The translations under genes were made by a program, and so were the position numbers. Positions 1-27,742 of a stretch of DNA of 59,432 bases are shown here, one piece after another; the stretch's first letter is position 1; every line of letters begins with the position of its first letter. Source of the DNA: a virus. Lineage: Duplodnaviria > Caudoviricetes. The stretch covers positions 1 to 59,432 of IMG/VR virus record IMGVR_UViG_3300014838_001974; one strand, given 5' to 3'. The notes below the pieces were generated by a model. It did no database searches and was not told where the DNA came from. It saw nothing but the letters and a program-made list of their open reading frames with translations.

Positions 1-1056
1 ATGTCACCCCGTCACTACGGTGCTTTGGATTTCTATCGGTTTATCGCCGCGACTGGCGTCGCCGTATTGCATTTCAGCATTTTTGCAAAATATGACGCGT
101 CATACGGATTTGGCGCCGCCGTAGGCAACTTCACGTTTTTCGTCGATTTCTTTTTCATCTTGTCAGGCTTCGTGATCGGATTAACCTATTCCGAATCCGT
201 TTCAGGCGGTGACGGCATCTTCACATACCTGCGGCGGCGCATCGCGCGAATATATCCGCTGCACATCCTCACGCTGAGTTTATTTCTTGTGCCTGGGCTG
301 CTTGGCCTTGGTCATCACCCCGATAAGGCAAACTTATTTCTGATCCTGCAAGAAGTGCTGCTGATGAGGTCATGGCCGCTGCACGCCTCATTGCCCTATA
401 ACTTCCCCTCATGGTCAATCAGCGTCGAATGGTCGATGTATCTGGTCTTCCCGGCAATCATCTTACTGTATCGACGATGCGGATTCCTTGCGCTCGTGGC
501 TTTGATAGTTGCCGACATTGTAATCGTCGGGACCGTTCTCACCGCTGACTACCCGTGGACACTCCTAGACAACCCACTTCGTGCGCTGCCCACCTTCACG
601 ATCGGTGTTCTGATTTCGTGGATACCAATGAAAGCGAGGGTCGCCGGTAGCGAATGGTTGAGCTTCGGCGCCTTCGTATTCTCGGTTGTGCTGATGATCT
701 TTCAAGCGAACACCTTGTTCATCCTCACCGCTTTAGTCACGACCGTCTTTTTTGCTGCGCTGAGCAACAATTCGTTGTTCAACCGGAAGATCTACGCCGA
801 ACTGGGCAACGCGTCATACGCCATCTACATGCTGCATGCGTTCATGCTGACGGTTTTTGTCGACAATGTTTGGCCGCGCTTGTTCGGAGGCCCGGTACCG
901 CTGAGCTATGGCGCAGCAATTATTGCCGTCACGATCGCGGTATCTATTTTTGTGTTTCGATATTTCGAGGTTCCGATGAGGCGCTGGATATCCGGCGGTA
1001 GATTCAAGCTGCCTTCGCCAGCCCCACCGGACTATTATCGTTCGAAGCTGGATTGA
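1..1056 (+). CDS. Acyltransferase-3 family (OafA/Oac-like) membrane O-acyltransferase; probable lysogenic-conversion moron
   Basis: Motifs LDFYRFIAA..V.VLH, VDFFFILSGFVI, RRRIARIYPLH, WSISVEW..Y, LGNASYAIYMLH and YFEVPMRR; about 10 hydrophobic segments; opposite strand to the late genes. Confidence 0.9.
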   Translation: MSPRHYGALDFYRFIAATGVAVLHFSIFAKYDASYGFGAAVGNFTFFVDFFFILSGFVIGLTYSESVSGGDGIFTYLRRRIARIYPLHILTLSLFLVPGLLGLGHHPDKANLFLILQEVLLMRSWPLHASLPYNFPSWSISVEWSMYLVFPAIILLYRRCGFLALVALIVADIVIVGTVLTADYPWTLLDNPLRALPTFTIGVLISWIPMKARVAGSEWLSFGAFVFSVVLMIFQANTLFILTALVTTVFFAALSNNSLFNRKIYAELGNASYAIYMLHAFMLTVFVDNVWPRLFGGPVPLSYGAAIIAVTIAVSIFVFRYFEVPMRRWISGGRFKLPSPAPPDYYRSKLD

Positions 1057-4000
1057 TGTCTCGTTCTAGTAGCCAGTTCTGCTGTGGGCACGCGGGCGGG
1101 ACGATTGGAAGGAATGCCGTCGGACTGCCGCACGGAATAGTTCCGGGCTGGCCGCTGCGCATGTAGTTGTTAGCCGCAGCGGCGATCCATGTCGTGTTCC
1201 AGCCGGATTGCGCGTTCTGCGTCATCGCTTGCGCAATGTAGTGATTGCCCGAGCCGTTCGTCATAGCAACGGGGCCGACATTTGACAGCGTACCGGGAGG
1301 CGCGGAAACCGTGAACGACGTGCCCGAGCCGGACACAACCTGCATGAATTGCGCACAGCCCGTGCAAAATACATAGTCGAAGATCGCAGGAGCGGTCCCG
1401 CTGTTGATCACGAGTGTGCCGCCATCATAGCTGCTACCCGCACCCGGATTGAATGTGCATGGGCTGTTACAGGTCACTGTGCCATTGAAACCGCTGCCGT
1501 TGTTCGCGGCGTCATAGGCTTCGACGTTGGCATTCGGATAAATCGTCGAGCATGGGACGGTTTTGGTGCCGCAATTCATCACCTGCGATGTTGCAAGTGC
1601 CGGGAGATTGGTTCCGGAAAATCCGACATCACTTGTGTTGTTTGAAACGTTCGTCTTGCTCCAATAATAAATATAGTTGCCGCTGCCGTTGTTACCGCTC
1701 GTCTGGGTTTCCCAGATAATGGCGGGAGACCCAGATCCGGAAGTGTTGCTGCCTTGATTAATAAACAGGTTGTTCGGGCCGAACCGGGCAATTGGGGTAT
1801 TGGGATTGTTAGGAAGATTAAACAAGAATGTCTGGCCGCCGTCCCCAACAGGCACCGACCCGCCGATTGCCGCAATAGAAGGATCGCATGTCACAAGCGT
1901 TGTTTTATCCGACGAAATAAATTTTGCTGTTGTTCCGCCCTGTGACCCGCTGATCGTTTGCGGAAAGGCGAAACTCGCACCAACAAACACGTTAGTCCCT
2001 GCCGCGCAGGTAGCGTCCGCCGTGACATACGATGGAATGTTTACCGCAGGCATTGAATTTTCGACAATCGAGAACTTGAACAGAGTGCTTCCGGTTCGGG
2101 CAATGTTAGAGCCGGTTGTTCCTAGATGGGTATCGATGTCGGTCCCGCCCGCACAAAGCCCGCTGCCGTTGGCGGCGTAGACCGGATAGGCGGTCGAGCT
2201 GCCATTAGCGGGATCGGCGCAATACCACGTGTTCAACGAAAGCCCTGCGGGCAACGCGCCGGGTGTCCCTGTGGAATAAATGATGGTAACGCCGGTTCCA
2301 ACGCTGAGACCCGCGCTGGGAGTCCAAGAAGCAATCGACGCACCCGGCTGCGTGGAGCATGTCCCAGCCGTGGTGATACTGTTGATCGTTGTGATGTTGC
2401 CAGCCGAATTTGTCGATGCATTCAACACCGGATTAACCGAACAACCAGCGCCTGCCCATGTGAGGGTCCCGGTGACGGAAGCTCCGTAGCCGCTGCCAGA
2501 ATAATTTACAGCGGGGGCTTGTTTGAACTGGAATGGCTCGTCCTGACTTCTTGCAGAGGCAATGCTTGGCTCCGTCACGATAGCTGGCAAGGCCGCCGAG
2601 ACGGAAGAGACGATGGAGCCAGTAGCAAATTCTCCGGTGACCCCGATGGTCGCGGGACCGTTATCAACAAAAATTCCAGAGATGTTCGCCAGTATGCCGT
2701 AACCGTTTCCAGCCCAAATTTGTATGTTGTCGCCAATCTGAACACCGTTGCCGCGAATGCCAGCAGTAATTGCCGTGCTGAGGTTTACAGAAAATCCATC
2801 TCTTGCGGATGCTATAAAAGCTGTGTTCGGAATCGATCCGGGATTGGAAAGGTTGACAATACCATTACCACTGGCGCTTCCGATAGCCGCCGCTAGAACG
2901 CCGTCTATCGAAAGAACGGTGCCGGAAGTAGCGGCAGCGGTTGCAGTTCTGTTAGCAACAATGTTGTCGTTTGCCTGCTCAACTACATTGTAGGAAATGA
3001 AACAGGGGTTGTCCTGAAGGTTGGCTGCAAGCGCACCTGAATTTTTCCAGAACAAGTTATTTATGGCCGTGCCGCAGTCACGGTACTGGCCATCTGCCGC
3101 ATTATTGAATACCGAGTTTCCGTGAATATAGATCGGAGCCTGCGGGTTGTGCAGATACCATGTGTGATCCAGCGACGTCGCAAAATAAGCCCATACATTT
3201 GGATTCCAAGCGCCAAAGTTCGAAGCATTTTCCTCTATCGTGATCTGGCCGGTGCTGGGGCAAGTCGGGCTGTATGTCGAGAGACAATTTGCAGGTATGA
3301 AGAGATTGGCTGTGTTTTGAGTTGACCCGTTAAATATGCTTCGCCTAAAAAACTGGTTTACGATTGGATAGCCTCCCGCAACAGTGCCGCCGCCAACGGT
3401 GGCAAAAGCCCCATAATCGAATCTATCGTCCTCGATAATTAAAGTGTTGGTCGTGCCGTTCATCGAGACGCCTGCATTTGCATTCCGCGTCTGGATCTGG
3501 ATCTTCATCTGGGTCGCGGTGAATGATGCGTTCGCATTCATCAGAATTGAAGTCTGAGCTGCGGCAATCGTAAAAGCCACGGAACCACCGCTTGAATATG
3601 TTCCAGCAAACGTAGTTCCAGCCAATTCAAGATGAGTGCTATCGTCAACAGCGCTTACCGTCGTCGTGGCGTTACACGCCGTTCCAGTTGCGCCAGCAAT
3701 GCCAGTCACAGCCACTGCCTGACCGATCGCCACGCCGGTCGTGCTGCTGACAGTCAGCTTGCACTGGCCTACGTTGGTCGTTCCGGTGACTGCCCCGGTT
3801 ATAGTCAATGTAAGAGGGGAAAAACTGTTGATGCCGTTTCCGATGATGGAAAAACTTGCGGATGTATAAATCTGCGAAGGTATGCCCGCCCCTGCGTTAA
3901 TATTGCAGATGACATTCGCTGTCCCGCAATTGGCGACGCCCGTATCGGCCGTGAGCGTAGCTCCCTGAAAAAACGGAGAAGCCGGATCATGTACTGCACT

Positions 4001-4639
4001 TTCGCAGTTGAGCCCGACGAAAGCCATGTACTCGCCGTTATGCTGATTTGTTGTCCAGCAAGATATATTGTCAGAAGTGGACTGGCTTATTATCGGACGT
4101 GCTCCGGTCCCACCAGCAATCACCAGCATCAGTTCATTGTTGGAAAGCCCCGACTTTCCCCAATTGTCATTTGACGTCGAGTTAAGACTTCCCGCCCAAG
4201 TATCGCTGCGCTTGAGAACCATCCAGTCTGGCTGGTTATTGCGCATGAGAGCTTGCGCTGCACCCAACGTCGAGCACGAAGTGGTAGCCCAACTACTAAT
4301 GGACGATAATTGGGTGCTGGACGTAATGCCTAACGATGCTGCGGTAACTGCTGTGCAATTCCCCGGAGCACTGCTCGAAACCAGAACTATTTTGGTCCCC
4401 GCCGAAGGCGTGAAAACCGTGTAGCCCGTCACAAGCCCGACGCACCAGTTCTGCCCGACCGGCTGGATGCCGCAGGTGTTGGCGTAAGTCGGAATTGATC
4501 CGTGCATCGCAGCCTGATGCAGCACCGAGACCGAGAACGGCAGCTTGGGTTCACCGATGAAAGGCTTCGCGCTGACGGAACCGAGGCCCGCGCCGATCAA
4601 AACCAGCGATAGAACGAGGAGGCGAACAATGTTCTTCAT
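1004..4639 (-). CDS. Large exported Gly/Ser/Thr/Asn/Cys-rich protein, probably parallel beta-helix (pectin-lyase-like, depolymerase/tailspike-like) with inserted domains
   Basis: Start moved to MKNIVRLLVLSLVLIGAGLGSVSA (signal peptide). VLVSSS...TLGAAQALMRNNQPDWMVLKRSDTW...GTGARPII resembles the cap of beta-helix proteins; Asn-rich repeats follow. Confidence 0.65.
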   Translation of the reverse strand: MKNIVRLLVLSLVLIGAGLGSVSAKPFIGEPKLPFSVSVLHQAAMHGSIPTYANTCGIQPVGQNWCVGLVTGYTVFTPSAGTKIVLVSSSAPGNCTAVTAASLGITSSTQLSSISSWATTSCSTLGAAQALMRNNQPDWMVLKRSDTWAGSLNSTSNDNWGKSGLSNNELMLVIAGGTGARPIISQSTSDNISCWTTNQHNGEYMAFVGLNCESAVHDPASPFFQGATLTADTGVANCGTANVICNINAGAGIPSQIYTSASFSIIGNGINSFSPLTLTITGAVTGTTNVGQCKLTVSSTTGVAIGQAVAVTGIAGATGTACNATTTVSAVDDSTHLELAGTTFAGTYSSGGSVAFTIAAAQTSILMNANASFTATQMKIQIQTRNANAGVSMNGTTNTLIIEDDRFDYGAFATVGGGTVAGGYPIVNQFFRRSIFNGSTQNTANLFIPANCLSTYSPTCPSTGQITIEENASNFGAWNPNVWAYFATSLDHTWYLHNPQAPIYIHGNSVFNNAADGQYRDCGTAINNLFWKNSGALAANLQDNPCFISYNVVEQANDNIVANRTATAAATSGTVLSIDGVLAAAIGSASGNGIVNLSNPGSIPNTAFIASARDGFSVNLSTAITAGIRGNGVQIGDNIQIWAGNGYGILANISGIFVDNGPATIGVTGEFATGSIVSSVSAALPAIVTEPSIASARSQDEPFQFKQAPAVNYSGSGYGASVTGTLTWAGAGCSVNPVLNASTNSAGNITTINSITTAGTCSTQPGASIASWTPSAGLSVGTGVTIIYSTGTPGALPAGLSLNTWYCADPANGSSTAYPVYAANGSGLCAGGTDIDTHLGTTGSNIARTGSTLFKFSIVENSMPAVNIPSYVTADATCAAGTNVFVGASFAFPQTISGSQGGTTAKFISSDKTTLVTCDPSIAAIGGSVPVGDGGQTFLFNLPNNPNTPIARFGPNNLFINQGSNTSGSGSPAIIWETQTSGNNGSGNYIYYWSKTNVSNNTSDVGFSGTNLPALATSQVMNCGTKTVPCSTIYPNANVEAYDAANNGSGFNGTVTCNSPCTFNPGAGSSYDGGTLVINSGTAPAIFDYVFCTGCAQFMQVVSGSGTSFTVSAPPGTLSNVGPVAMTNGSGNHYIAQAMTQNAQSGWNTTWIAAAANNYMRSGQPGTIPCGSPTAFLPIVPPACPQQNWLLERDINPASNDNSPVGLAKAA

Positions 4640-4641
4640 GT

Positions 4642-5784
4642 TCAGCATCCGATACACCGGGACCCGCCGCTGGATGGCGCGCTCACCGTGATCCCGGTGT
4701 TACCACCGAGATCGAATGAGCTCGTCGGCAACAGGGGCCCACCGGTGACCGTGATCTGCTTGAACGCTCCCCATGAGGCCGAAAGCGTGGCTCCGGTCAC
4801 GGCTAACGTTGCCACCGAAGTCGAGTTCGTACTGGAGCCGGACAGCTCGACCAAACCATTTGATGCCCCGGTTATCGTGAGCGCTCCCGTGATTGTATTC
4901 GTCGTGGCGGAAGTCAGCGTGTAACGTCCGGGACCATTGAAAATCAACGTGCCAAATGAATTTGATCCCGTGATCGCGTTTTCTGTGGCATTGGTTCTGC
5001 TGTTGAACTTCACCGTTCCGTAAGTCTTGCCCGCTCCGGCGAAACTCGCGGAGTTTCCAGTAAAGCCGCTGGCATTTATGACAATCGTCCCCGAATTGAA
5101 CGTGGACGACCCGTTGGCGTTCGTCATATCCCACGGTGTAGAACCATTCAAAGTGAGAGTTCCGGAACCCAACGTTATAACAGGAGAGCCCGTGCTGTTG
5201 GCCAAAAGACCGTTGCCGACGGATGAGATATTCAAGTTTTGACCGTTGAAATTCAGGCCACCATTATATGCACCCAACGTTAAAGCTGCGATGGTGGCAT
5301 TGTTCATCGTGGAATCGAGAGCAACGGTTCCGAGCAGCGAATTGGCATCGAACGTAGCCGTATCTGCCGTGCCGGGAGCGGATGATCCCCCGGAACCACA
5401 CGTAGCCGTCGATGACGCCGCCCAGCTGGCTGTATTAGATGCAGTCCATAATCCGCCCGACGCGCAAGCCGGGCCGCCGAATGTGCCCGCACCAAATGTC
5501 GATCCAGCCAGTTCGATGTGCGTGGTGTCGTCCACAGCACTGATCGAAAACGTACCATTACATCCCGTCACCCCGGTGATGCCGACAACAGTCACCGAAG
5601 TTCCGACCAGGAGGCCGCCGCCGACAATGGCAGGCGATATCGTGAGCTTACACTGACCTACGTTGGTCGTTCCGGTGCCCGCTCCCGTCACGGAATATGG
5701 ATTCCAGAAACGTGTCGCCGCCCCCGCCTGCGACGATACCAGCAGCCCCAGCGCGATCAGGGCATATCGGAGATAATTTTTCAT
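4642..5784 (-). CDS. Exported Gly/Thr/Ser-rich beta-solenoid-like protein (virion appendage/adhesin-like)
   Basis: Start moved to MKNYLRYALIALGLLVSSQAGA (signal peptide). TRFW...GGLWTASNTASWA...APGTADTATFDANS followed by autotransporter-like beta repeats. Confidence 0.65.
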   Translation of the reverse strand: MKNYLRYALIALGLLVSSQAGAATRFWNPYSVTGAGTGTTNVGQCKLTISPAIVGGGLLVGTSVTVVGITGVTGCNGTFSISAVDDTTHIELAGSTFGAGTFGGPACASGGLWTASNTASWAASSTATCGSGGSSAPGTADTATFDANSLLGTVALDSTMNNATIAALTLGAYNGGLNFNGQNLNISSVGNGLLANSTGSPVITLGSGTLTLNGSTPWDMTNANGSSTFNSGTIVINASGFTGNSASFAGAGKTYGTVKFNSRTNATENAITGSNSFGTLIFNGPGRYTLTSATTNTITGALTITGASNGLVELSGSSTNSTSVATLAVTGATLSASWGAFKQITVTGGPLLPTSSFDLGGNTGITVSAPSSGGSRCIGC

Positions 5785-5789
5785 TGTGA

Positions 5790-7022
5790 TTAACCCGAGT
5801 AGCCGGATGCCGAGCAGATCACGCTGGCTCCAGTCGTGACGTCCTGCGCATAGAGACCATTGCCCGCCGTGGTCCAGAACAGAGGGTACGCATTGGTGCC
5901 CTGCTCGCCGCCGAAATTGTCTGCAGCGACCAATGTGTCGAGTACAGTCCCGCCGCTGCCGTCTTGAATTTGAACCAGCGTATTGACGGTCGTGCTTGAA
6001 TTGTTGCACTTCACCCGGGTGATGTAGAGCCGCTTGCTCGCGACCGCTGCCACCACCTGGGTGCTCGATGTTCCCGTCATGGCAGCTGAGACGGTGCCGG
6101 AAACAAACGTTTGCCCCAGCGCGAGTGTACCTGGAATTTGCGTTTCGAACGCGGGGTTGGTCGCGCTTAAAGCCGTACCACCCTGCGTCGGTACCACGCC
6201 GTTGCCGTTCACCAGCGATGGCGTCGCATTGAGACCGACACCGCCGATAATGTTCGAGATCGCCTGCGTCGCCAGCGGATTACCCGCCGTCGTGTTGAGC
6301 GTACCGAGAGCGGCATAGACGCCCTTGAGGAGGGCGATGACGGACGCCGAACCCGAACCGCCATAGGCGGCGTCGGCCTTGGCTCCCTGCGTCAGGTCCC
6401 AGCCATCGACGCCGGCGCCGGTCGCGAAAGCCCCTGCGGAAAGCGCACCGGCCGCATAAGATCCGACCGCCGCTGTGATGGCGCCGCCGCCAGTGCCACT
6501 CGACCCGCCGCCAAATCCGGTGCCGTTGCCCGAACCACCCGCCATCAGGATCTGGTTCGATCCTGTGCTTCCGGTCTGATCTATACAGGAGACGTGGTCG
6601 AAACCAGTGACGCCGATATCCTTGACGCTCATCGGCGGCAGGATGACGTTGTTGACGACGCCGGTGGCAGCCCCGCTCGCAAACGTGCACGACACATAGG
6701 CCGAGGTCAGGTTGGCAAATTCAACCGTGCCGGTACTGGTCGGCAGCGCGGTAGATGCCGAGGGCGACGCGGTCGCAGTCAGGGTTCCGAACACGTTGCT
6801 CGGCGTGAACGGGGTCGACGATCCCCCGCTAGATCCTCCACATTGTCCAGCGGTCGTTGCCGGCACCCATTGTCCGCTGCCGTTTTCGCAACCGAACATC
6901 ACCGAACCGACCGAACTCTCTCCGGCTGTCGTTGTCGGCCACTGCGTGGTCGCCAGTGCCGGCGCCGCTGACGCGAGAGCCCAGACACAGCAAGCCGCCG
7001 CCAGATTGCGGATGATCTTCAT
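5790..7022 (-). CDS. Exported structural-type protein (Gly/Thr-rich, two beta-sandwich-like domains)
   Basis: Signal peptide MKIIRNLAAACCVWALASAAPALA; SD-like GGAG upstream; linker QGAKADAAY..SGSASVIALLKG seen in phage structural proteins. Confidence 0.6.
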   Translation of the reverse strand: MKIIRNLAAACCVWALASAAPALATTQWPTTTAGESSVGSVMFGCENGSGQWVPATTAGQCGGSSGGSSTPFTPSNVFGTLTATASPSASTALPTSTGTVEFANLTSAYVSCTFASGAATGVVNNVILPPMSVKDIGVTGFDHVSCIDQTGSTGSNQILMAGGSGNGTGFGGGSSGTGGGAITAAVGSYAAGALSAGAFATGAGVDGWDLTQGAKADAAYGGSGSASVIALLKGVYAALGTLNTTAGNPLATQAISNIIGGVGLNATPSLVNGNGVVPTQGGTALSATNPAFETQIPGTLALGQTFVSGTVSAAMTGTSSTQVVAAVASKRLYITRVKCNNSSTTVNTLVQIQDGSGGTVLDTLVAADNFGGEQGTNAYPLFWTTAGNGLYAQDVTTGASVICSASGYSG

Positions 7023-7056: not shown

Positions 7057-7509
7057 TCAGACGCCGCCGGGCGCCACGTAGCAGTAAACGAACCAGGTGC
7101 GGCTCAGGAAGATCACACCATGGCCGCTCGGATTGCGCTGTGGCGTCGGGTCGGTGTCGCCCGCTCCCCATTTGAATTTTTGCGCAGGCACCTCGATCTC
7201 GGTGCCGATCGGGACATGTGGACGCATCCGTGGCGCGTCTGGCCTGTCGTCGGTAATCACGGCATAGACCTTGCCGTTCCTGACGTGAATCTCGTCCGCC
7301 CAATAGGCGTCGGCCTCGCCGCAGCACGATGCGGCCGGTTGATCCGGCTGCCTCAAATTCTGGTACCATTCGCGGATCGCGGGGTCGTTGTTGATGGCCC
7401 CCCATTGCCCGAGATCCCGGGAGTGGCCCAGCTTGACCGTGTAGAGATAACCGCCGATCGCCAGCATCGCGGCGATCGCCAGCAGCAGCCTGCGGTTCTC
7501 GGCGCTCAT
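7057..7509 (-). CDS. Hypothetical phage protein with N-terminal membrane anchor/signal and SCCGEAD motif
   Basis: Hydrophobic N-terminus; translationally coupled (ATGA overlap) to the upstream gene. Confidence 0.7.
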   Translation of the reverse strand: MSAENRRLLLAIAAMLAIGGYLYTVKLGHSRDLGQWGAINNDPAIREWYQNLRQPDQPAASCCGEADAYWADEIHVRNGKVYAVITDDRPDAPRMRPHVPIGTEIEVPAQKFKWGAGDTDPTPQRNPSGHGVIFLSRTWFVYCYVAPGGV

Positions 7510-7838
7510 TGCACGGACACCCGCGCCACGCCGGCACCGACAAAGCCGAGCTCGCGCGCGATGCCGTGGCTGACGTCGATCACGCGGCCGGTCCAGCTCG
7601 CCGGACCGAAATCATTGACGTAGCAGCGCGCGCTGCGCCCGGTCGCCAGCACGGTGACGGTGACCCAGCGCCAATGATGCGTCCGCATCGCACAGGTCGC
7701 GCCCTCGGGGTGAAAGCGCTGCCCGCTCGCGGTCTGGCGGCCGCTCTCGGCGCCGTACCAGGACGCCAGGCCGGATTCGGCCGACGCGGGGATGGCGAGC
7801 GCGCACAGCAACGCCGCCGCGCATGCGGTTTTCAACAT
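7506..7838 (-). CDS. RlpA-like double-psi beta-barrel protein (lytic transglycosylase family), exported
   Basis: GLASWYG..GRQTASGQRF...TCA...VNDFGP...GRVIDVSHGIARELG is the RlpA signature; signal peptide MLKTACAAALLCALAIPASA. Confidence 0.85.
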   Translation of the reverse strand: MLKTACAAALLCALAIPASAESGLASWYGAESGRQTASGQRFHPEGATCAMRTHHWRWVTVTVLATGRSARCYVNDFGPASWTGRVIDVSHGIARELGFVGAGVARVSVQ

Positions 7839-8212: not shown

Positions 8213-9211
8213 TTAAAGGCCGACCGCCGAGGCGGCCGCGAGTCCTGCCGCGCCCGTCACGATTCCATTGACGGCCTGCAGCGCGGTGACCTTGAACATT
8301 TGCGCCGTGCCGGCGCAGGCCGTCAGCAGCACACCCTGCGGCGACAGATTGTCGATCAGCTCCGCTATATCCTCGATATCGGTGATCAGCGCGGGGTCGG
8401 GACGTACCAGCGGATTACCGCCGGCGTCCTTCAATCCGTCACCGCTGACCTGATCGGCCGCCGCCGAGATCGCGGTCAAGCACTGCAGCCGGACCTTGCT
8501 GCCGTTGGTGTTGGCGCCCTTTGCCTTGGCGATGGCATAGGTCAGATCGTCCTTGTTGATCTTGGCGATGCGCTTGGACACGCGCTGCACGTCTTCGGAT
8601 ATATTGCCGGTCAACAGTCCGCACAGCCCCAACGGGTCCCATGGCAGCGGGCACGCCTTGGTCGGAGCCGCCGGCGCGGCCGCGTGCGCCTTAGGCTGCG
8701 CGGATGCCGGTGCGGCCGCCATCATGCCGACCACGAACATCGCGAGCAGCACCGCCGCGACCTTGCCGACCTGCACGGTATTGCTCGGCACCGCCGTCGC
8801 CAGCGCCTGGCCGCTCCTGGTGTCGATCGTGGCGACGCCGGCGACCTCCGGCAGCTGATCGGTGATCGCCACCACATTGACCTTCTGGTCGAAGCTGGCG
8901 AGCTTCACCTGGTCGATCATCTTTGGGCTGCCGGCGATGGCGGCCGCCGAGCGGAAGAAGCTCGCGAACGGACCGGACTTGACCGCCGAGTAGGCGATCA
9001 TCGCCAGCGTCGCCAGCGAGGCGATCGAGCCGTAGAGATCCTTCAGGTCGGCGGCGATGTGGTCGACGTCCTGCGTCGCCTCCTTGACCTGGCTGGCGTC
9101 GAGCGCGCCGAAGAACGAGAGCGCCGCGATCGCCGAGCCCGCGCCGACCACCAGATGCGACGCGATCACGGCCGCCTGATGTTTGGTCGGCATCGTCACG
9201 TTGATATTCAT
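8213..9211 (-). CDS. Membrane protein of the lysis region (holin-like N-terminus plus Cys-containing C-terminal domain)
   Basis: Start MNINVTMPTK after an AAGGAG SD; two N-terminal hydrophobic helices and an internal signal-peptide-like helix. Confidence 0.55.
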   Translation of the reverse strand: MNINVTMPTKHQAAVIASHLVVGAGSAIAALSFFGALDASQVKEATQDVDHIAADLKDLYGSIASLATLAMIAYSAVKSGPFASFFRSAAAIAGSPKMIDQVKLASFDQKVNVVAITDQLPEVAGVATIDTRSGQALATAVPSNTVQVGKVAAVLLAMFVVGMMAAAPASAQPKAHAAAPAAPTKACPLPWDPLGLCGLLTGNISEDVQRVSKRIAKINKDDLTYAIAKAKGANTNGSKVRLQCLTAISAAADQVSGDGLKDAGGNPLVRPDPALITDIEDIAELIDNLSPQGVLLTACAGTAQMFKVTALQAVNGIVTGAAGLAAASAVGL

Positions 9212-9246: not shown

Positions 9247-9429
9247 TTACTTCGGCAATTGCACTTCCTTGCATCCGCCGTCGGCCTTGCAATTGTGATA
9301 GGCGGTGATGGCCAGCGCGCCGGCGGAGATGCCGACGCCGGCGACCGCGAGACCGGTGGCGAGGGGAAGCGCCGCGCAGCCGCCCAATGAACAGGCCAGC
9401 ACCAGCGCCAGGACGATCTTCATCTTCAT
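9247..9429 (-). CDS. Small lipoprotein (possible spanin component)
   Basis: MKMKIVLALVLACSLGG-C lipobox; GGGAGAG SD; lysis region. Confidence 0.6.
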   Translation of the reverse strand: MKMKIVLALVLACSLGGCAALPLATGLAVAGVGISAGALAITAYHNCKADGGCKEVQLPK

Positions 9430-9445: not shown

Positions 9446-9949
9446 CTAATGATCAATTCGAACGTGGCTGGACAGGATCAACATCAGGTCGCGCGGCGTG
9501 ACGTGATGGAACGGCACCGTCAGCGGCCACCGGAAGATCTCGCACTTGGGCGCGCGCAGCCCGTCCGTCATCAGCGCCGAACAGATGATGTGGTCGAGCA
9601 GATGCGTATGCAGATCCGGCGCCACGAAGCCGAAGATCGATTGCCAGTCGTAGGGCTCGCCGATCTTCGCCTGCAGAAAAGCGTAGAACGCCGCTTCCTG
9701 CTCCGGCGTGCACGGCAGCGGGACGATGCGTTCTGACAGGGATCCGTCGGGCAATGTCAGCAATTCGCCGGCATCGTATCCGACCGGCCGCGCCAGCACG
9801 CCGCCGTCGAAATGCGCGCCGATATAGAACTTGCCGTCCGGCGTCAGCGCCTCGGCATGGCTCGGCGTGAACGGCATCGAGACGCCGGCCTGCATCCGGA
9901 TCAGTTTCGACGCGAAGTCGTTTCCGGTAACGAAGCGAATACGGATCAT
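9446..9949 (-). CDS. Permuted papain-like NlpC/P60 (YiiX/YebB-like) enzyme
   Basis: Start MIRIRFVTG; His motif PSHAE, then KIGEPYDW, then C-terminal ICSAL, the catalytic order of permuted NlpC/P60 proteins. Confidence 0.7.
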   Translation of the reverse strand: MIRIRFVTGNDFASKLIRMQAGVSMPFTPSHAEALTPDGKFYIGAHFDGGVLARPVGYDAGELLTLPDGSLSERIVPLPCTPEQEAAFYAFLQAKIGEPYDWQSIFGFVAPDLHTHLLDHIICSALMTDGLRAPKCEIFRWPLTVPFHHVTPRDLMLILSSHVRIDH

Positions 9950-10143
9950 GATGCTTCCTTGAACTTGACATTGGCCATGGCGATCGCGCGGGCATGGAAC
10001 GCCTTCACCCGATCGAAGCCGAGCGCGAGCTGCTGGTCTTTTTCCGAGTCCGGCAGATCCGTCGCAAACACGTTGCGAAATTCGGTCTTGACGGTTTCGA
10101 TCGCCTCTTCGTCGATCGCCTTGATGACATCGCCGAGCTTCAC
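9946..10143 (-). CDS. Hypothetical protein
   Basis: Short ORF with a GTG start overlapping the upstream stop; its own stop overlaps the next ATG. Confidence 0.5.
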   Translation of the reverse strand: MKLGDVIKAIDEEAIETVKTEFRNVFATDLPDSEKDQQLALGFDRVKAFHARAIAMANVKFKEAS

Positions 10144-10292
10144 GGAAGCGCCGCCTTCCAGATGCAGCGCACATACATGATGCCGATCGCCTCGCATCGA
10201 TCGTGCGGCGCGCGCGGGCGATGATGCCGCGGATGCGCGAGAGCGCTCCCGGCAAGCAGCACCAGCAGCCCGATCGCGATCAGGCCGCGCAC
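10140..10292 (-). CDS. Small exported protein (50 aa)
   Basis: GTG start: MRGLIAIGLLVLLAGSALA-HPRHHRPR..C..C; fills the gap between coupled genes. Confidence 0.5.
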   Translation of the reverse strand: MRGLIAIGLLVLLAGSALAHPRHHRPRAPHDRCEAIGIMYVRCIWKAALP

Positions 10293-11002: not shown

Positions 11003-11037
11003 GGGGAAAATCTCCGGAGTATGGTAGGTTGAATGTG

Positions 11038-11114: not shown

Positions 11115-11119
11115 GCCGG

Positions 11120-14229: not shown

Positions 14230-14250
14230 GGTGGACGTTTCCAAGGAGCT

Positions 14251-15792: not shown

Positions 15793-15823
15793 CGTTGGTG
15801 GTCCTGTTGATGAATGGATGGTT

Positions 15824-16354: not shown

Positions 16355-16357
16355 TTT

Positions 16358-19300
16358 CTAATATCCTTCCACGGTCATGCTCAGGCTTCGCACCACCCGC
16401 ACCCCGCTGTTGACGACTTCGAAGGTGATCGACGACAGCGACAGCGACGAGATCAGGAGATCGTCGCCGGCCTGGGCGTTGACGATGCCCCATTGCACCA
16501 CCGGCAGGCCGGACGGGCCGGCCCCGCCATTGAAGGGCGCGGTGGCGGAAGCGCCAGTCGGCTCGAAAGTGATGGTGGTGTTGGCCGACGAAGAGGTCGT
16601 CACCGCGTAGGTATCGATCCGCGGCGGGATGGTGATGGTGATGACGAATTCGAGGTTGTAGGCGATGGTCAGCGGATCGACGGTCTCCAGCAGCATCGCG
16701 AAGTTGATGGCGCGCGCCTGATAGGTGCCCGGCGAGAAGCGCTGGAAGCCATTCCAGTTGTAATCGGCCGACGTGTAGAGATCCGGATACTGGTAGAGGT
16801 CTCCGAGCGAATAGAGATCGCCGCCGGTCGCGGTCGCGGTGTTGATCAGCGGATAGACCGTGATGTATTGCGTCGACGCCGAGCCGAGAATGTCCGGCGT
16901 GTTGAGAAAATCTCCGATCGCGAGGATGTTCTGTCCGACCGGAACGCCGGTCGGCTGGTACTGGATCGAGATCGACGCGTTGGCGACATAGCCGATGTCG
17001 AGGAACGCCGCGTCGCTCGGAAAATACTCGCCCGAAATGCCGCCGCCATATTCCAGGATATCCGTGGTGCCGAGGATGCTGGAATCGGTCAGGATGTTGC
17101 CGCCGCCGGTGCGGATGGCGTTGATGGCGTTGTCGACGCCGGCGCCGCCGCTGAAGGCGCCGGGCCAGTTGTCGGCCTTGAGGTCGACGGTCAGCACCAC
17201 GTTTTGCGTGATCACCGCGCCGGCGACCGCGATATCCTCCCAGGCTTCCGAATAGACCGTCAGGCCCGGAACCGGTGTTGCGACCGCGGCGACCCAATAG
17301 GTGCCGTTGCCCGGCACCCGGAACGGCGGATGCGCCACCTGCCCCAATGAAAGCGCCGAGGCGAACGACGTTCCGGTGCGCACCTCGTATTTGAAGGCGC
17401 GGAAGTCCGTAATGTCGTCCCAGTCGAGTTCGGTGAAGCCGGCATTGACGTCGAACACGGTGCGCAGATTGGTGATGCTGGGCAGCGGCGAGGCCAGCGC
17501 CGAGCCGGTGATCGCGTAGGTGTAGGGCGTGCAGTCCGCGAGGCTTTGCTGACCTCCCTGATAGATGTTGAAGGACTGGAATTTAAGATAAAGCGTCGCC
17601 CCGATCCGGCCCTGGTCGTAGGCGAAGGCGAAGATGTTGCCGTCGAGCCGCGCGAACGGCGTGCCGACCGGATGGCTGGCGATCTCGGATTCGGTGCCAT
17701 AGGCGCCGCGCACCAGATAGGTCAGGTTGTAGGCCTTGGCTCCCGTCAGGGTGGCTGTGGCGTAGGAAAGAATCTCGCCGCCGAGATAGAAGGCGGTGTT
17801 CAGCGCCAGCGCGTCGCCCTGCGTTCCGGACGACAAGGTCGCTCCGCTTTCCGCGACGTTGACCGAAACGGCGTTCTGCGTGTCGATGGTCTGCTGGCCG
17901 GTCGGATTCGCCGCAACCGCCGGCGTGACCGCTGACGTGACACCCATCCGTGACGGGCCGATGATCTCGCCGACGCGCTGATAGTTCTCCCCGTCATAGC
18001 TGGCCCAGACGAAGCAGCCGCCCCAGGTCTGCAGATCCTGCCCCGAAACCGCGCCCCAGATCTGCAAACCGCCCAGCGCGTTGGTCTGGTTCAGTTCGTC
18101 CGTGGGCTCGAAGATGATCGGCGCGTTAACCGGCCCCGGCGCCACGTTGTAGTTGATCACGGCGCCGGCGGTCGGCTGCGTCCCGTAGGTCGGCGCCGAC
18201 ACCGTGCCGAGATATTCCTCGGCCGTGACGGTGATCGAGAAGTCGGAATTCTCCTGGATCTCGATGATGCGGGCGGGCTGTTCGAAGAACCCCTGCCCCT
18301 CATCGGTCACCGTGACCAGCGCCATCAGCTCGAGGATGAGCATGAAGTGCCGGCCGCAGGTGAACTGGAACGTTCGCGCGATCTGCTGGCGCACCAGCTG
18401 CAGCATCGCCGATTGCTGCGCGGCGCCGGCGAGGCAGAAGAAGTGGTACTGCTTGATGTCGCTCGGCCGGGTGCGGCCGAAGGCGATGATCGAGGCCTCA
18501 TCCTTGACCTCGATATCGACCGGATTATAGGAGTTCGGGCGATCGAGATATTCGACCTTGACGACGTTGTTCATCTGATCGCGCGAGGTGCGCACGCAGA
18601 TCAGCGGCGAATTGTTGACGGCCAGCCCCGAGCCGATGGTGCCCTGGTTCGCAAGAAAATCGTCGAGCGTGAAATCGTACAGCGGCGTGGTGTTCGGATA
18701 ATACGATGCCGCCGCGGCGTAGTCGTAGCTGATCAGGACTTCCTGGTTGATGTCCCCCGGATTGAAATAATAGACCCCGCCCTGCTCGTAGTACTGGCCC
18801 TGCGCCGGGCTTCCGCTGGTGGCGTAGCCCGTCGGCTCATAGGTCGTGACTTTGGTCAGCGGCGCTCCGCTCGAATAGGTGACCCCGCCGTCACCCGCGA
18901 ACAGCGCATAGAAGCTGACTTCGATCAGCGGCCAGTAAAGCGGATTCCCTTGCGAATCGACGCCGTTCTGATCGGCCGGGACGTCATGCGTTTCCGTGAT
19001 CGACCGCACCTGGCCCGCGGTCACCGCGGCGTCCCCATAGGGAACCACGGTGAATTGCCCGTCCTGCCAGCACGGCGCCGAATTGGTGGCGTCGGTCAAG
19101 TCGTTGACGAACGAGGACGCCGCCACGCTCGAGGCGATCACCGGCGAAACCACCAGGCCGAGCGCGAGGCAGTAGCTCTGCCATTGTGCGAACGAGCCGA
19201 GCCGGGACACCGGGAATCCCAGGCCGTAATACGGATTGGTCAGGAACGAGGTCAGCGCGACCGAAGCGTCCCCGTCCGGCTGGCCGGCGATGGCGGTCGC

Positions 19301-19852
19301 GTTCGGCGACACCACTTCGAAGGTGATGTTCGGAATCGCGGGCGACGATCCCAGCGGAAAATTGGCGAACGCGGCATAGCAGATGCCGCGATAGGCCTGC
19401 GCATGCGAGACGTCGTAGGCTTCGGTGTTGCTCCACGGCTGTTGGGCATAGTCGCCGAGAAAGTTTTCCTGCTCGTAATAGAAGCCGTTGAGATAGAACT
19501 GCCCGTTCTCGTCCGGCGTTCCCGGAAAGCTGGCGGGCGTGCCGCCGATCCACATGTTCGAGATGTTGTAGACCGGGCCCTCGCAGATGCCGATGATGAA
19601 CGAGGTGAAGTAATCGTAGTTGCCGCTGCTGCCCTTGCCGCCGCCCGAGACCGCGCCGCCCTTGCCGCCGCCGGATGATGGCGCGTTCTGGTAGTTGAAG
19701 CCGTAATTGTCCAGCAGATTGCCGGCTACGCGATTCTGACCTCCGAGCACCAGCGCGATCGGCACGCCCTGCAGCGAGGTGTTGACGCGCAGTGACGTCG
19801 CCGGCGGCGATGTCTGCTGGGCGCCGAAGATACCGGTAAGGAACCGAGCCAC
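16358..19852 (-). CDS. Tail tip / host-specificity protein (tip attachment J / GTA megatron-like)
   Basis: SLQGVPIALVLG..RVAGN, IGICEGPV, AYRGICY, PNITFEV and RGAYGT motifs; position after the NlpC/P60 gene. Confidence 0.88.
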   Translation of the reverse strand: MARFLTGIFGAQQTSPPATSLRVNTSLQGVPIALVLGGQNRVAGNLLDNYGFNYQNAPSSGGGKGGAVSGGGKGSSGNYDYFTSFIIGICEGPVYNISNMWIGGTPASFPGTPDENGQFYLNGFYYEQENFLGDYAQQPWSNTEAYDVSHAQAYRGICYAAFANFPLGSSPAIPNITFEVVSPNATAIAGQPDGDASVALTSFLTNPYYGLGFPVSRLGSFAQWQSYCLALGLVVSPVIASSVAASSFVNDLTDATNSAPCWQDGQFTVVPYGDAAVTAGQVRSITETHDVPADQNGVDSQGNPLYWPLIEVSFYALFAGDGGVTYSSGAPLTKVTTYEPTGYATSGSPAQGQYYEQGGVYYFNPGDINQEVLISYDYAAAASYYPNTTPLYDFTLDDFLANQGTIGSGLAVNNSPLICVRTSRDQMNNVVKVEYLDRPNSYNPVDIEVKDEASIIAFGRTRPSDIKQYHFFCLAGAAQQSAMLQLVRQQIARTFQFTCGRHFMLILELMALVTVTDEGQGFFEQPARIIEIQENSDFSITVTAEEYLGTVSAPTYGTQPTAGAVINYNVAPGPVNAPIIFEPTDELNQTNALGGLQIWGAVSGQDLQTWGGCFVWASYDGENYQRVGEIIGPSRMGVTSAVTPAVAANPTGQQTIDTQNAVSVNVAESGATLSSGTQGDALALNTAFYLGGEILSYATATLTGAKAYNLTYLVRGAYGTESEIASHPVGTPFARLDGNIFAFAYDQGRIGATLYLKFQSFNIYQGGQQSLADCTPYTYAITGSALASPLPSITNLRTVFDVNAGFTELDWDDITDFRAFKYEVRTGTSFASALSLGQVAHPPFRVPGNGTYWVAAVATPVPGLTVYSEAWEDIAVAGAVITQNVVLTVDLKADNWPGAFSGGAGVDNAINAIRTGGGNILTDSSILGTTDILEYGGGISGEYFPSDAAFLDIGYVANASISIQYQPTGVPVGQNILAIGDFLNTPDILGSASTQYITVYPLINTATATGGDLYSLGDLYQYPDLYTSADYNWNGFQRFSPGTYQARAINFAMLLETVDPLTIAYNLEFVITITIPPRIDTYAVTTSSSANTTITFEPTGASATAPFNGGAGPSGLPVVQWGIVNAQAGDDLLISSLSLSSITFEVVNSGVRVVRSLSMTVEGY

Positions 19853-19855
19853 ATT

Positions 19856-20371
19856 CTAAACCTGATCTGATTGCCGCAGCCCGTCGCCCTGCGGCCGGCG
19901 CGGGGCGAACAGGCTGAAGAATTTCATGTCGAGAATTTCTGTCCCAAGCCTCGGCCGCAGCCCGTTATCCCGGCGAACACATTTCGACGCGAAATGGGCG
20001 TGGATGATGCTGGGCCAGCCCGGCTCGATGATCAGCGCGCCATGGGCAAAACAAAGGCCGATCTTGTAGAGCACGATGTCGCCGGTCCGCGCTTCATCCT
20101 GCGGGATCTCGCGTCCACCGACCTTGAGTATCCAGCCGATGTACCGCTCTTCCTTGCCGTGCAGAAAGAACTGCGGCGAATAGTGATCCAGCTGGAATGG
20201 TTCGACCATGCCGGCTTCCTGAAACGTGCATTTCAAAAACGTCGCGCAATCGACGCCGGCGCCCTTGACTTCGCCATGGTCATGAAACGGCGTCGAGATA
20301 TAGCTGCGCGCGATGGCGTCGATGCGATCGCGAGCCGCACGCTCTGAATCGGTCACGTCTTGGTCCGTCAC
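19856..20371 (-). CDS. Tail-associated NlpC/P60 peptidase
   Basis: ARSYISTPFHDHGEVKGAGVDC and GDIVLY..CFAHGA..IIHA; GTG start overlaps the upstream stop. Confidence 0.88.
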   Translation of the reverse strand: MTDQDVTDSERAARDRIDAIARSYISTPFHDHGEVKGAGVDCATFLKCTFQEAGMVEPFQLDHYSPQFFLHGKEERYIGWILKVGGREIPQDEARTGDIVLYKIGLCFAHGALIIEPGWPSIIHAHFASKCVRRDNGLRPRLGTEILDMKFFSLFAPRRPQGDGLRQSDQV

Positions 20372-20649
20372 GTCTTGCCGATTTCCGCGAGCGCGTCCGC
20401 CATCGCCGCCTGCACGATCCGCGCCGACGCGGCCTGGATCTTCTGCGCGTTGGCGAGCTGGACCTTTGGGGCCAGATCGACCACCGATTTGCCGTTGGCG
20501 GCGACCTGATCGCTGATGCGCGCGATCGCGGCCTGGCGCTGATCGGACGGCAGCGCCTTCAGATAGGGCACCAGCAATTCCGACACCACGGCGTCGATCA
20601 CCAGCACCATGCCGACGAGGCTTTGATTTTCGAGATCGATGATCTTCAT
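20368..20649 (-). CDS. Hypothetical helical protein inserted in the tail-tip module
   Basis: 93-aa ORF abutting or overlapping both neighbours. Confidence 0.6.
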   Translation of the reverse strand: MKIIDLENQSLVGMVLVIDAVVSELLVPYLKALPSDQRQAAIARISDQVAANGKSVVDLAPKVQLANAQKIQAASARIVQAAMADALAEIGKT

Positions 20650-26291: not shown

Positions 26292-26294
26292 CGT

Positions 26295-26858: not shown

Positions 26859-26873
26859 CGCGAATGCTCCAGC

Positions 26874-27272
26874 CTACGCGACACCGGCCGCCTTGAGTTC
26901 AATCGCGCCGGCAACGGCGCGCTTGAACCCGTCGACATCGACGACGTTCAATTCGTCGCCGGTGTCGACGATGATGATCCTGTCGTTCTTCCGGACCGGC
27001 AGCGGAAACCGCGCATTCGCCAGATCCGTCGCCATCAGAATGACCAGGCGATCGCCTTCCGTGATCGCGCCGATCTTGGTCGCGGCGTAGCCGGTCTGCG
27101 CCGGCTGCGTGGTATCCGGCTGATAGTCCGTCACCATCGCGACCACCCAGGCGCTGAAACTCGCGGTCGGATTCGGCGCGAAGCCCGTGACGCGCTTGAG
27201 GATGATCTGGGTGCCGCGCTTGAGCAGCGCCCGATCATAGGCCGCGACCATTCCGGGGTTCGGTGTCGTCAC
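26874..27272 (-). CDS. Head closure / head-tail joining protein
   Basis: GTG start overlapping the upstream stop; small beta-rich protein between adaptor and neck genes. Confidence 0.6.
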   Translation of the reverse strand: MTTPNPGMVAAYDRALLKRGTQIILKRVTGFAPNPTASFSAWVVAMVTDYQPDTTQPAQTGYAATKIGAITEGDRLVILMATDLANARFPLPVRKNDRIIIVDTGDELNVVDVDGFKRAVAGAIELKAAGVA

Positions 27273-27742
27273 CGCGCCTCGCAATTCACGCTGAGAAGCG
27301 ACCCGCCGCCATAGGTCCCGGTCGAGACCACGGTCGCTTGCAGTCGATCGCCGAGCGGGCCATTGAGCACGGTGTTGTTCGCCAGCGCCAGATTGGTCAG
27401 CGCCGCCGGCGTGGTAACCGAATTCAGGCCGGACAGGTTGATGGCATCGACGCCGCTCGAGGTGGTGAATTCGATATTGGCGATGTCGAACCAGCTCTGG
27501 CCCTGGTCGAGCGAGCTTTGGATGTAGACATTCACTTGCGTGCCGCCGGAGCCATAGGCGAAGCGAGCCTGGCACGACAGCGCGGTCATGCCCTGCAGGC
27601 CGGTCTGCGGCGTTCCGACCTGCGTCCCAGCCGGACCCACCTGGAAATTGCCGAGCGGGATGACGCCGGAAGAGGTGAACTGCGCGGCCGCGGGAGCGGC
27701 AAGCAGCCAGAGCAGCGCGACCGATGTAAGAAGGCGTTTCAT
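27269..27742 (-). CDS. Exported beta-sandwich protein inside the head-tail joining module
   Basis: Signal peptide MKRLLTSVALLWLLAAPAAA; VYIQSSLDQGQSWFDIA jelly-roll-like motif. Confidence 0.7.
   Translation of the reverse strand: MKRLLTSVALLWLLAAPAAAQFTSSGVIPLGNFQVGPAGTQVGTPQTGLQGMTALSCQARFAYGSGGTQVNVYIQSSLDQGQSWFDIANIEFTTSSGVDAINLSGLNSVTTPAALTNLALANNTVLNGPLGDRLQATVVSTGTYGGGSLLSVNCEAR

Follow-up and report, generated by a model that had tools for sequence, protein, structure and literature searches.

By the standard account, tailed phages are assembled entirely in the cytoplasm. The locus described here raises the question of whether this holds for every part of the virion. It lies in a 59.4-kb viral contig with a guanine-plus-cytosine (GC) content of ~63% (IMG/VR record IMGVR_UViG_3300014838_001974, positions 1 to 59,432; hereafter the window, meaning the whole stretch of DNA that was analysed), which represents a siphovirus prophage of Bradyrhizobium type, from a soil bacterium. 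Two tail fibre genes, a small gene of the head-tail module and several further late genes of this window encode proteins that begin with an export-type leader. Comparison with homologues strongly supports the view that the leaders are cleavable Sec-type signal peptides, by which these proteins would be exported. In addition we propose that accessory parts of the virion are exported by Sec, oxidised in the periplasm and attached to the particle at lysis, and we put the probability of this proposal at roughly one half. The argument rests on the following features.

14251 to 15792, minus strand: fibre 1, 513 amino acids (aa), with a 24-residue leader (predicted cut between SWA and SQN), a putative N-terminal docking domain, a tail-collar region and 6 Cys.
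12040 to 14229, minus strand: fibre 2, 729 aa, with a 32-residue leader (predicted cut between VLA and TQA), an N-terminal domain akin to that of fibre 1, a spike-like C-terminal part and 7 Cys.
27269 to 27742, minus strand: 157-aa jelly-roll protein with a 20-residue leader (predicted cut between AAA and QF) and a Cys57/Cys154 pair, whose gene separates the connector gene from the one that comes next in the head-tail module.
16358 to 19852, minus strand: central tail (host-specificity) protein, 1164 aa, without leader (Pfam Phage-tail_3 and Rcc01698_C).
17048 to 17155, minus strand: segment of the central tail protein (residues ~900-935) contacted in the complex model, the first of two similar short repeats.

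A preliminary description of the window had named ten open reading frames (ORFs) with leaders, namely 1004-4639, 4642-5784, 5790-7022, 7506-7838, 10140-10292, 11120-12013, 12040-14229, 14251-15792, 15824-16354 and 27269-27742. All ten are present on the minus strand, each with an n-region, a hydrophobic core and a small-residue cleavage site. Its companion statement, that the core proteins have no such leaders, also holds for capsid, portal, tape measure, tube, hub and central tail proteins. Leaders were detected with a strict rule of our own, which demands an uncharged run of at least 13 residues, a 9-residue Kyte-Doolittle mean of at least 2.1, a net positive n-region and small residues at positions -3 and -1; an earlier, laxer rule was positive for 23 of 52 genes and was tightened for this reason. 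The strict rule flagged nine of the ten named ORFs. In total it flagged 13 of the 52 genes, 11 of the 14 below coordinate 16358 and two of the 38 above it, the latter being the 157-aa ORF and a weak match that starts at residue 29 of the central tail protein. With the 513-aa ORF and 9446-9949 added, 12 of the 15 genes on the distal side of the central tail gene have leaders vs 2 of 38 elsewhere (Fisher p 1.3e-7), an enrichment that is far from chance. The 9-residue Kyte-Doolittle mean of the hydrophobic core lies between 2.1 and 3.5 in all ten leaders, and the net charge of the n-region is +1 to +4 in nine of them.

The behaviour of these leaders in homologues indicates how they are used. The 513-aa fibre has 1647 database relatives at E<=0.001, and the leader counts for its family cover the 120 homologues listed among these. 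Homologues keep the leaders, a point on which the preliminary description had sought evidence: a hydrophobic leader is present in 100 of the 120 listed fibre 1 homologues, and the 157-aa protein has 82 relatives of which 64 carry one as well. The fibre leader varies in sequence, has a median length of 24.5 residues and stops right before a conserved S-Q; near this mature start the family carries the nearly invariant motif P-T-T-G-T-V-S-G-L. Residue -1 of the 100 leader-bearing fibres is A in 94, G in 5 and S in 1, and residue -3 is small in 87 (A 63, S 11, V 7, T 3, G 3). The remaining 20 listed homologues comprise three leaderless proteins and 17 that fall outside the anchor pattern used.

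Leaderless relatives mark the same site from the other side. For these we used a set of 80 related IMG/VR loci and 10 genome loci that encode the N-terminal domain; a first scan of genome contigs with the central tail protein alone had found no relative. The set contains 48 unique ORFs with this domain, 35 with a leader and 13 without, and 12 of the 13 leaderless fibres start with M-S-Q exactly at the aligned predicted mature end of the leader-bearing forms. Judging by the small second residue, the initiator Met would be removed and both forms would share one N-terminus. Because the leader is variable and hydrophobic, the -3/-1 site is canonical and the predicted mature end coincides with the leaderless starts, a cleaved signal peptide is the indicated function, and from these comparisons we infer that the proteins are actually exported and processed. 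The export claim of the preliminary description was drawn from the leaders of the window; it now has comparative evidence beside it, in a leader that is conserved while it varies, in the match of mature ends and in the Cys pattern described below.

Two other kinds of signal were considered and rejected. A twin-arginine translocation (Tat) signal would need a motif that is not conserved among the fibre homologues: the 729-aa fibre of the window has R-R-L-F-R-I, its near homologues have H-R, N-R or K-R at this place, and the leaders of the 513-aa and 157-aa proteins are without R-R. A lipoprotein signal on the fibres is contradicted by the missing lipobox, since the mature fibres begin with S/T-Q and the 157-aa protein with Q-F. 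Among the window proteins tested, a lipobox with Cys at +1 was found solely in the 60-aa ORF 9247-9429.

The preliminary description had also noted paired Cys residues in the leader-bearing proteins, and mature Cys counts are in fact even in nine of the ten named proteins (28, 6, 6, 2, 2, 4, 6, 2 and 2). Among the leaderless virion and lysis proteins of the window, the count is odd in 6 of 12. The same pattern recurs in the related loci, some of whose fibre ORFs are cut off by contig ends: leader-bearing fibres have an even number in 35 of 35 cases (2-12 Cys), leaderless ones have 0-6 Cys with an odd number in 5 of 13, and the pair C129/C151 occurs in 19 of the 35 vs none of the 13. Counted over related sequences as if these were independent, as holds for all parity counts and Fisher tests given here, 92 of 100 leader-bearing proteins of the 513-aa family have an even number (p 3e-19). 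The mosaic family of the 729-aa fibre was divided by the leader rule into 65 forms with and 55 without a leader. The former have an even count in 57 cases, a mean of 8.0 Cys and 1.18 Cys per 100 residues; the latter have an even count in 22 cases, a mean of 2.7 and 0.41 per 100 residues (Fisher p 3.5e-8 for parity). The rule overlooked a few leaders in this family (e.g. P0208 and P0297), and therefore the contrast is if anything understated.

If the fibres are exported, are they nevertheless parts of the virion? Their place in the genome suggests so. The late genes all lie on the minus strand in the order terminase, portal, capsid (Phage_capsid), connector (Phage_connect_1), tail completion and terminator proteins and tape measure, followed by DUF2460, a BR0599-type hub, a small gene with an NlpC/P60 gene, and the 1164-aa central tail protein. 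The tail tip is thus of the type known from gene transfer agent (GTA)-like and phiJL001-like siphoviruses. In the window the gaps at the fibre genes, which adjoin the tail genes, measure 3-31 nucleotides. Among loci with enough upstream sequence, 33 of 35 leader-bearing and 9 of 11 leaderless fibre genes are preceded, often immediately, by a homologue of the C-terminal part of the central tail protein. The relatives of the fibre gene come from Bradyrhizobium, Bradyrhizobiaceae, Bosea and other alphaproteobacterial assemblies. A status as moron or lysogenic-conversion genes was considered for the fibres and rejected: the GC content at their third codon positions (GC3) is 0.83-0.85 and resembles that of the neighbouring genes, the gaps are short, and promoter- or terminator-like sites around the fibre genes of the window show no excess over chance. 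Such a status fits in part the stretch 1004-5784, by its deviant GC, and the acyltransferase gene, by its position on the plus strand.

The architecture of the proteins points in the same direction. Many related loci match fibre 1 only at residues 25-215 and differ in the distal parts, and the putative docking domain is the best-conserved part of the fibre in the family alignment (A2). The AlphaFold2 (AF2) model of fibre 1 has a mean predicted local distance difference test (pLDDT) value of 77.7 and a predicted template modelling (pTM) score of 0.52, and its top fold matches in the PDB are all phage fibre, spike or baseplate chains; they include CBA120 TSP4 residues 1-250 (E 3.9e-5), the fibre of cyanophage A-1(L), and T4 gp10 and gp12. 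At the sequence level, fibre 1 matches a PHROG labelled 'tail protein' (E 1.1e-7) and Pfam Collar exactly at the cut-off (24.0 bits, with no stretch passing), and a PDB sequence search with the A2 profile gave nothing at E<=0.1.

A docking site on the tail can also be proposed. We modelled three copies of fibre residues 25-215 together with a C-terminal fragment of 375 residues from the central tail protein, which gave a median interaction prediction score from aligned errors (ipSAE) of 0.66 vs 0.24 for the best control. In the calibration, 58 of 80 solved complexes attain this mark, as do 2 of 110 mismatched pairs; the present model differs from it by using our own alignments and three copies, and likeness to solved fibre-tail complexes may contribute to the value. 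At least 82% of contacts are common to the runs, and the pLDDT of the partner is at least 75. The predicted interface is formed on the fibre by residues 32-43, that is by the invariant motif, 7 residues past the predicted cut, and on the partner by residues 111, 116-119 and 127-146 of the 375-aa fragment. Hence, fibre docking on the central tail protein appears plausible from the model, and we propose the latter as the putative docking platform for the fibres.

Two short repeats are present in the central tail protein, at residues ~916-937 and 973-993 and thus ~57 residues apart (alignment A3). They are of the type N-I-L, four residues, I/F-L, then T/P-D-I-L. In the complex model it is the first repeat that makes the contact; five of the related loci (L018, L031, L036, L085 and L086) have lost this one and keep the second. 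Possibly each fibre has a docking site of its own in one of the repeats.

On a tree of the N-terminal domain (49 rows) the leader state changes seven times, at least three of them on well-supported branches, and leader-bearing and leaderless fibres occur as sisters (L037 with L041, L019 with L026). It follows from such sisters that the same fibre works with or without a leader. The arrangement of the window is also found in an isolated phage. Siphophage ppBdUSDA122-1, which is produced spontaneously and was confirmed by transmission electron microscopy (TEM), has leaders on both of its fibre genes, whose products are WAX24264 and WAX24263; its tail tip is different and lambda-like, with the same C-terminus of the central protein. 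Leaderless fibres are absent from both the window and ppBdUSDA122-1. The particles were seen by TEM as those of a siphophage (PMC10127595), and the passages of the main text available to us do not mention signal peptides, tail fibres, proteomics or mass spectrometry.

Fibre 2 is a mosaic of related parts. Its N-terminal domain is 31% identical to that of fibre 1 (E 2e-7), residues 14-119 match a 'tail fiber protein' of Bradyrhizobium phage ppBdUSDA122-1, and residues 425-628 match the annotated tail spike of Pseudanabaena phage Pam5. For P0211, a leader-bearing relative with another type of N-terminal domain, isolated phages were matched in the distal part only. A PDB sequence search with the 729-aa fibre returned a lone chance-level match to a plant PR-1 protein (E 0.082).

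The 157-aa protein is encoded far from the fibres and is a real gene with a GC3 of 0.81. Its 82 database relatives comprise, besides the leader-bearing forms, 16 leaderless ones and two fragments. The leaderless relatives begin within ~10 residues of a conserved L-G-D-F motif, and the covarying Cys57/Cys154 pair is present in 44 of the 64 leader-bearing forms vs none of the 16. A homologue of the connector ends at most 400 nucleotides upstream of the gene in 42 of 73 loci. Because the forms in IMG/VR are mostly leaderless and the connector gene lies upstream, the 157-aa protein is an ordinary member of the head-tail module which acquired its leader in the Bradyrhizobium-type lineage. The AF2 model (pLDDT 91.4) consists of a helix at residues 2-15 followed by a beta (jelly-roll) sandwich. 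Its fold matches are generic jelly rolls, carbohydrate-binding modules among them, and small phage proteins that are uncharacterised, and we read the protein as a putative surface decoration. No tblastn match to this protein was found in 50,697 phage records. Some records carry members of both families: six paired relatives (e.g. P0010/P0122 and P0016/P0126), matched by record data, have leaders in both, as does the IMG/VR contig covered by L037 and L092. A scan with the fibre profile of five whole records that encode leaderless 157-aa homologues gave one partial match, at positions 117-216. The neighbouring connector-type protein (27747-28796, minus strand) has 349 aa, and its Phage_connect_1 match is restricted to residues 26-90.

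Taken from the head side to the left end of the window, the remaining features that concern us are these.

20368 to 20649, minus strand: 93-aa gene, in a separate frame from the NlpC/P60 peptidase.
~19856 to 20360, minus strand: NlpC/P60 peptidase, in a separate frame from the 93-aa gene.
15824 to 16354, minus strand: 176-aa protein whose N-terminus is a leader or an anchor; its gene separates that of the central tail protein from that of fibre 1.
11120 to 12013, minus strand: probable SASA/SGNH-type carbohydrate acetylesterase with a leader and 4 Cys (Pfam SASA below threshold, and Atlas cluster).
10280 to 11002, minus strand: muramidase of glycoside hydrolase family 25 (GH25), the endolysin, without leader or signal-anchor-release (SAR) segment (Pfam Glyco_hydro_25, E 1.4e-19).
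10140 to 10292, minus strand: 50-aa leader-bearing protein of the lysis cassette, with a weak DUF6732 match.
9446 to 9949, minus strand: gene of a 167-aa cytosolic protein, of good GC3, flanked by the genes of the lipoprotein and the 50-aa protein.
9247 to 9429, minus strand: 60-aa lipoprotein with Cys after L-G-G, recognised by its sequence.
8213 to 9211, minus strand: 332-aa membrane protein of the lysis region, with no family match.
7506 to 7838, minus strand: RlpA-like double-psi beta-barrel (DPBB) lytic transglycosylase with a leader (Pfam DPBB_1, E 2.2e-14); the same gene is annotated in ppBdUSDA122-1.
7057 to 7509, minus strand: 150-aa protein with an N-terminal membrane anchor and 3 Cys, described from its sequence.
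5790 to 7022, minus strand: 410-aa Gly/Ser/Thr-rich exported-type protein with a leader and 6 Cys, cargo.
4642 to 5784, minus strand: 380-aa exported-type protein with a leader and 6 Cys, of lower GC.
1004 to 4639, minus strand: 1211-aa exported-type protein with a leader and 28 Cys, of lower GC.
1 to 1056, plus strand: acyltransferase (Pfam Acyl_transf_3, E 8.7e-28), convergent with the late operon.

The claim that the leader-bearing proteins are of virion type stands for the two fibres and the 157-aa protein, by position, fold matches and the shared putative N-terminal docking domain. It does not extend to 7506-7838 (RlpA-like) and 10140-10292, which are ordinary lysis proteins, as leaders on lysis-cassette proteins are ordinary, or to the three cargo proteins in 1004-7022, for which no evidence of a virion role and no family match were found. 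A separate secreted appendage, offered as a further option, found no support. None of the exported proteins has a match in PADLOC or NCBIfam. The 176-aa protein is also without a match in Pfam and PHROG; its family has 68 representatives, 58 of them with an N-terminal hydrophobic segment that is often anchor-like, and a conserved domain with two Cys that is predicted to be periplasmic. Its role could lie in assembly within the periplasm or in exclusion. The assignment of 11120-12013 as a SASA-type acetylesterase is probable: its Pfam SASA match scores 16.8 bits, below the cut-off of 24.8, and its best cluster by Atlas features (0.94) has SASA in 83% of members, many of them viral. The acyltransferase at the left end is likely a conversion gene for O-acetylation of surface polysaccharide, and an acyltransferase also follows the fibres in ppBdUSDA122-1. 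The presence of an acyltransferase and an exported acetylesterase in one phage indicates an acetylated polysaccharide receptor; the pair of acetylation and de-acetylation may mark the receptor polysaccharide.

The same set of lysis-region genes is carried by ppBdUSDA122-1. The 60-aa lipoprotein is a possible outer-membrane spanin. Since the endolysin has neither leader nor SAR segment, a hole-forming holin is needed, and no protein of the window is identified as a holin with confidence. The gene at 9446-9949 matches phrog_1128 (E 4.3e-9), whose label, enoyl-CoA hydratase-like, is unlikely in this context. Further to the left, the 1211-aa and 380-aa proteins have a 74-residue domain in common (59% identity), and both genes are covered by a low-GC stretch at 1-6000 (0.53-0.57 vs ~0.63 elsewhere); the 410-aa gene lies mostly within the region of normal GC. 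This composition suggests that 1004-5784 is recently acquired cargo. No match to the 1211-aa protein was found in Pfam or PHROG, or in the PDB at E<=0.1, and its Atlas matches score below 0.9, some of them with Beta_helix; as a lead, it is possibly a beta-helix depolymerase.

Four observations concern other parts of the window. A frameshift was considered for the 263-aa NlpC/P60 region (19856-20649, minus strand) and rejected, as this region holds two genes in different frames. A protein with a NusG domain (E 3.7e-5) is encoded at 38302-39030 (minus strand), upstream of the terminase region, and may be a phage late-transcription antiterminator. An integrase fragment lies at the right end of the window, opposite the acyltransferase at its left end. 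Finally, several metagenome runs on peat and permafrost, which come from different studies, have contigs with DNA nearly identical to window positions 11000-20000, with word shares of 0.36-0.81 apart from the probable source run.

The mechanism we propose is as follows. The particle core, consisting of capsid, connector, tube, tape measure, hub and central tail protein, would be made and assembled in the cytoplasm. The two side fibres, the small jelly-roll protein and probably the acetylesterase would be exported unfolded via their Sec-type signal peptides, which signal peptidase I would cut right before the conserved S/T-Q start. In the oxidising periplasm these parts would fold with disulfide bonds and the fibres would trimerise. 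The compartments would meet only once the inner membrane is opened by a holin, as the leaderless GH25 endolysin requires, and the holes formed by canonical holins are large enough for fibres to pass. Presumably, attachment takes place during or just after lysis, when the free mature N-terminus of the fibre (residues 32-43) could bind the repeat near residues 900-935 of the central tail protein. A wider form of the proposal is that widespread temperate siphophages of Bradyrhizobium and other soil Alphaproteobacteria build their virion in two compartments, with the DNA-filled particle made in the cytoplasm and the fibres and a capsid- or neck-side decoration made and disulfide-bonded in the periplasm, that these products are joined at holin opening or just after lysis, and that otherwise equivalent fibres have gained or lost the leader repeatedly, so that the assembly route can evolve for each virion part. 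This we hold more tentatively, as slightly short of evenly balanced.

Several observations weigh against this interpretation, in addition to the limits stated above for the parity tests and for the score of the complex model. The leader of the 513-aa fibre was missed by the strict rule solely because its n-region has a net charge of 0, and the mature 729-aa fibre has an odd number of Cys (7). In the 157-aa family, the leaderless form dominates in IMG/VR, with a hydrophobic leader in only 3-4 of 80. The template modelling (TM) scores of the fold matches of fibre 1 are low, at 0.11-0.18 on the query. When relatedness is allowed for, the link between leader and Cys is not significant: there are 3 independent pairs on supported branches (median p 1), 1.3-1.5 in the same direction and 0 in the opposite one, so that the test is underpowered. 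Agrobacterium phage Milano has an extensive disulfide network in parts built in the cytoplasm, according to those passages of PMC10811340 available to us. Cys pairs alone therefore do not require export, because the Milano virion is rich in disulfides without a sign of export. Finally, in L018 (5856-11044) and L041 (4142-9018) a leaderless fibre directly follows the central tail gene and is itself followed by leader-bearing fibre-like genes; L018 has a leaderless and one leader-bearing copy of the same type of N-terminal domain. This arrangement would fit exported copies with another role.

Such another role is the core of an explanation in which the proteins are exported and disulfide-bonded without being virion parts. 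Located in the periplasm or at the cell surface, they would act on the envelope of the producing cell by masking or destroying the polysaccharide receptor, as the esterase, depolymerase-like proteins and fibre-like binders might do, or by excluding superinfection, with the benefit that progeny are not lost on debris or that a superinfecting phage is kept out. Exported exclusion proteins are known beside tail genes, for example T5 Llp, lambda Lom and Cor. The retention of a leaderless fibre next to leader-bearing ones in L018 and L041 speaks for this explanation, as do the acetylated polysaccharide receptor implied by the acyltransferase and the leader-bearing acetylesterase, and the three exported cargo proteins in 1004-7022 without a link to the virion. 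However, known exclusion proteins are small lipoproteins and not fibres of 500-700 aa, and no PADLOC matches were found. The putative docking domain, with its nearly invariant motif, is the most conserved part of the fibre, which would be unexpected if docking had been lost. The fibre genes abut tail genes with no sign of a promoter or terminator of their own, and both the window and ppBdUSDA122-1 would be left without any leaderless fibre to serve the virion. On balance we regard an envelope role as less probable than the proposed route, yet as its main rival.

The remaining alternatives concern the leaders themselves. The hydrophobic N-termini might stay uncleaved, as inner-membrane anchors or in some other role such as an assembly plug, in which case no soluble periplasmic fibre would arise. 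The relatives of the 176-aa protein with anchor-like segments and no clear site, the apparently anchored 150-aa protein (7057-7509) and the missing net positive charge in the 513-aa leader are in line with this. For the fibres, however, the preference for A at -1 and small residues at -3, the fixed distance to the conserved start and the leaderless homologues that begin exactly at the predicted site argue for cleavage, and since the model wraps three copies round the partner with the motif 7 residues past the site, an uncleaved helix would hinder docking. We therefore consider uncleaved anchors improbable. Far more remote is an annotation artefact, in which translation would begin further downstream and the leaders would be untranslated or chance extensions of the ORFs. 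No point in support of it was found. The codons of the leaders are coding-like, with a pooled GC of 0.69, 0.53 and 0.85 at positions 1, 2 and 3 (156 leader codons from GC-rich genes). The gene of the 513-aa fibre has no alternative in-frame start between codons 15 and 80, and the next start of the 157-aa gene is codon 35, past a conserved motif at 28-33. Furthermore, two families that are unrelated to each other retain leaders, in 100 and 64 homologues. The leaders are thus translated, and any alternative start would lose the conserved mature N-termini.

How does the proposed route compare with known systems? As with lambda Stf on J, a siphophage side tail fibre, the fibre gene directly follows the central tail gene; as with Stf/J and gp10-like spike attachment (CBA120 TSP4, T4 gp10), a conserved N-terminal attachment domain is combined with a variable distal part. 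Fibres and spikes of the lambda Stf and gp10-like types are not known to carry a signal peptide, and their assembly is cytoplasmic, whereas most members described here combine a cleavable-type leader with paired Cys. Signal-peptide and SAR endolysins and spanin lipoproteins are likewise late-operon products that use host Sec, and the window has an RlpA-like enzyme and a lipoprotein of its own; those are lysis proteins, however, and the endolysin of the window is leaderless. The Ff proteins pIII and pVIII are virion proteins that are made with signal peptides and matured outside the cytoplasm. In this they resemble the virion proteins proposed here, but Ff belongs to another realm and is extruded through the envelope without lysis and without a pre-built cytoplasmic particle. 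Leader-bearing genes in or by the tail-fibre region include T5 Llp, lambda Lom and Bor, and Cor. In contrast to the fibres, their products are small outer-membrane proteins or lipoproteins with prophage or early expression and have no fibre architecture or docking domain. The Bd2133 type of Bdellovibrio represents phage-tail-fibre-like proteins that are deployed outside the cytoplasm, and the C-terminal domain of Bd2133 (8ok3) is among the weak fold matches of the 157-aa model (TMq 0.46). Unlike the proteins of the window, Bd2133 is encoded by a cellular gene of a predator, outside a phage tail module, and does not dock on a tail protein.

Milano, like the phage of the window, is alphaproteobacterial, and its particle depends on many disulfide bonds; these are located in the sheath and baseplate, and the passages available from PMC10811340 use 'signal' solely for image processing and contain neither 'periplasm' nor 'cytoplasm'. 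Signal peptides on fibres or decorations are likewise unmentioned in the available parts of PMC10127595, PMC12656738 and PMC3556154. A search of full-text literature, which left most subscription journals and supplements outside its coverage, found no account in which fibres or decorations of a tailed phage bear such peptides. The parts are thus of known kinds and the proposed assembly route is new, with a prior description being possible.

The claim can be tested directly in a harmless and cultivable host, Bradyrhizobium diazoefficiens USDA 122, with its spontaneously produced phage ppBdUSDA122-1. If it is true, a signal peptide would no longer be grounds for excluding a gene from the virion set in annotation. 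The infectivity and host range of a phage would then depend on host factors such as Sec, signal peptidase and DsbA/DsbB, and the timing of the holin would gain a role in assembly. Export would also provide a simple origin for disulfide-stabilised receptor-binding proteins suited to soil. Even if the proteins act on the envelope of the producer instead, the fibre-like proteins exported from tail modules would form a large family and represent a new kind of phage-encoded envelope factor.

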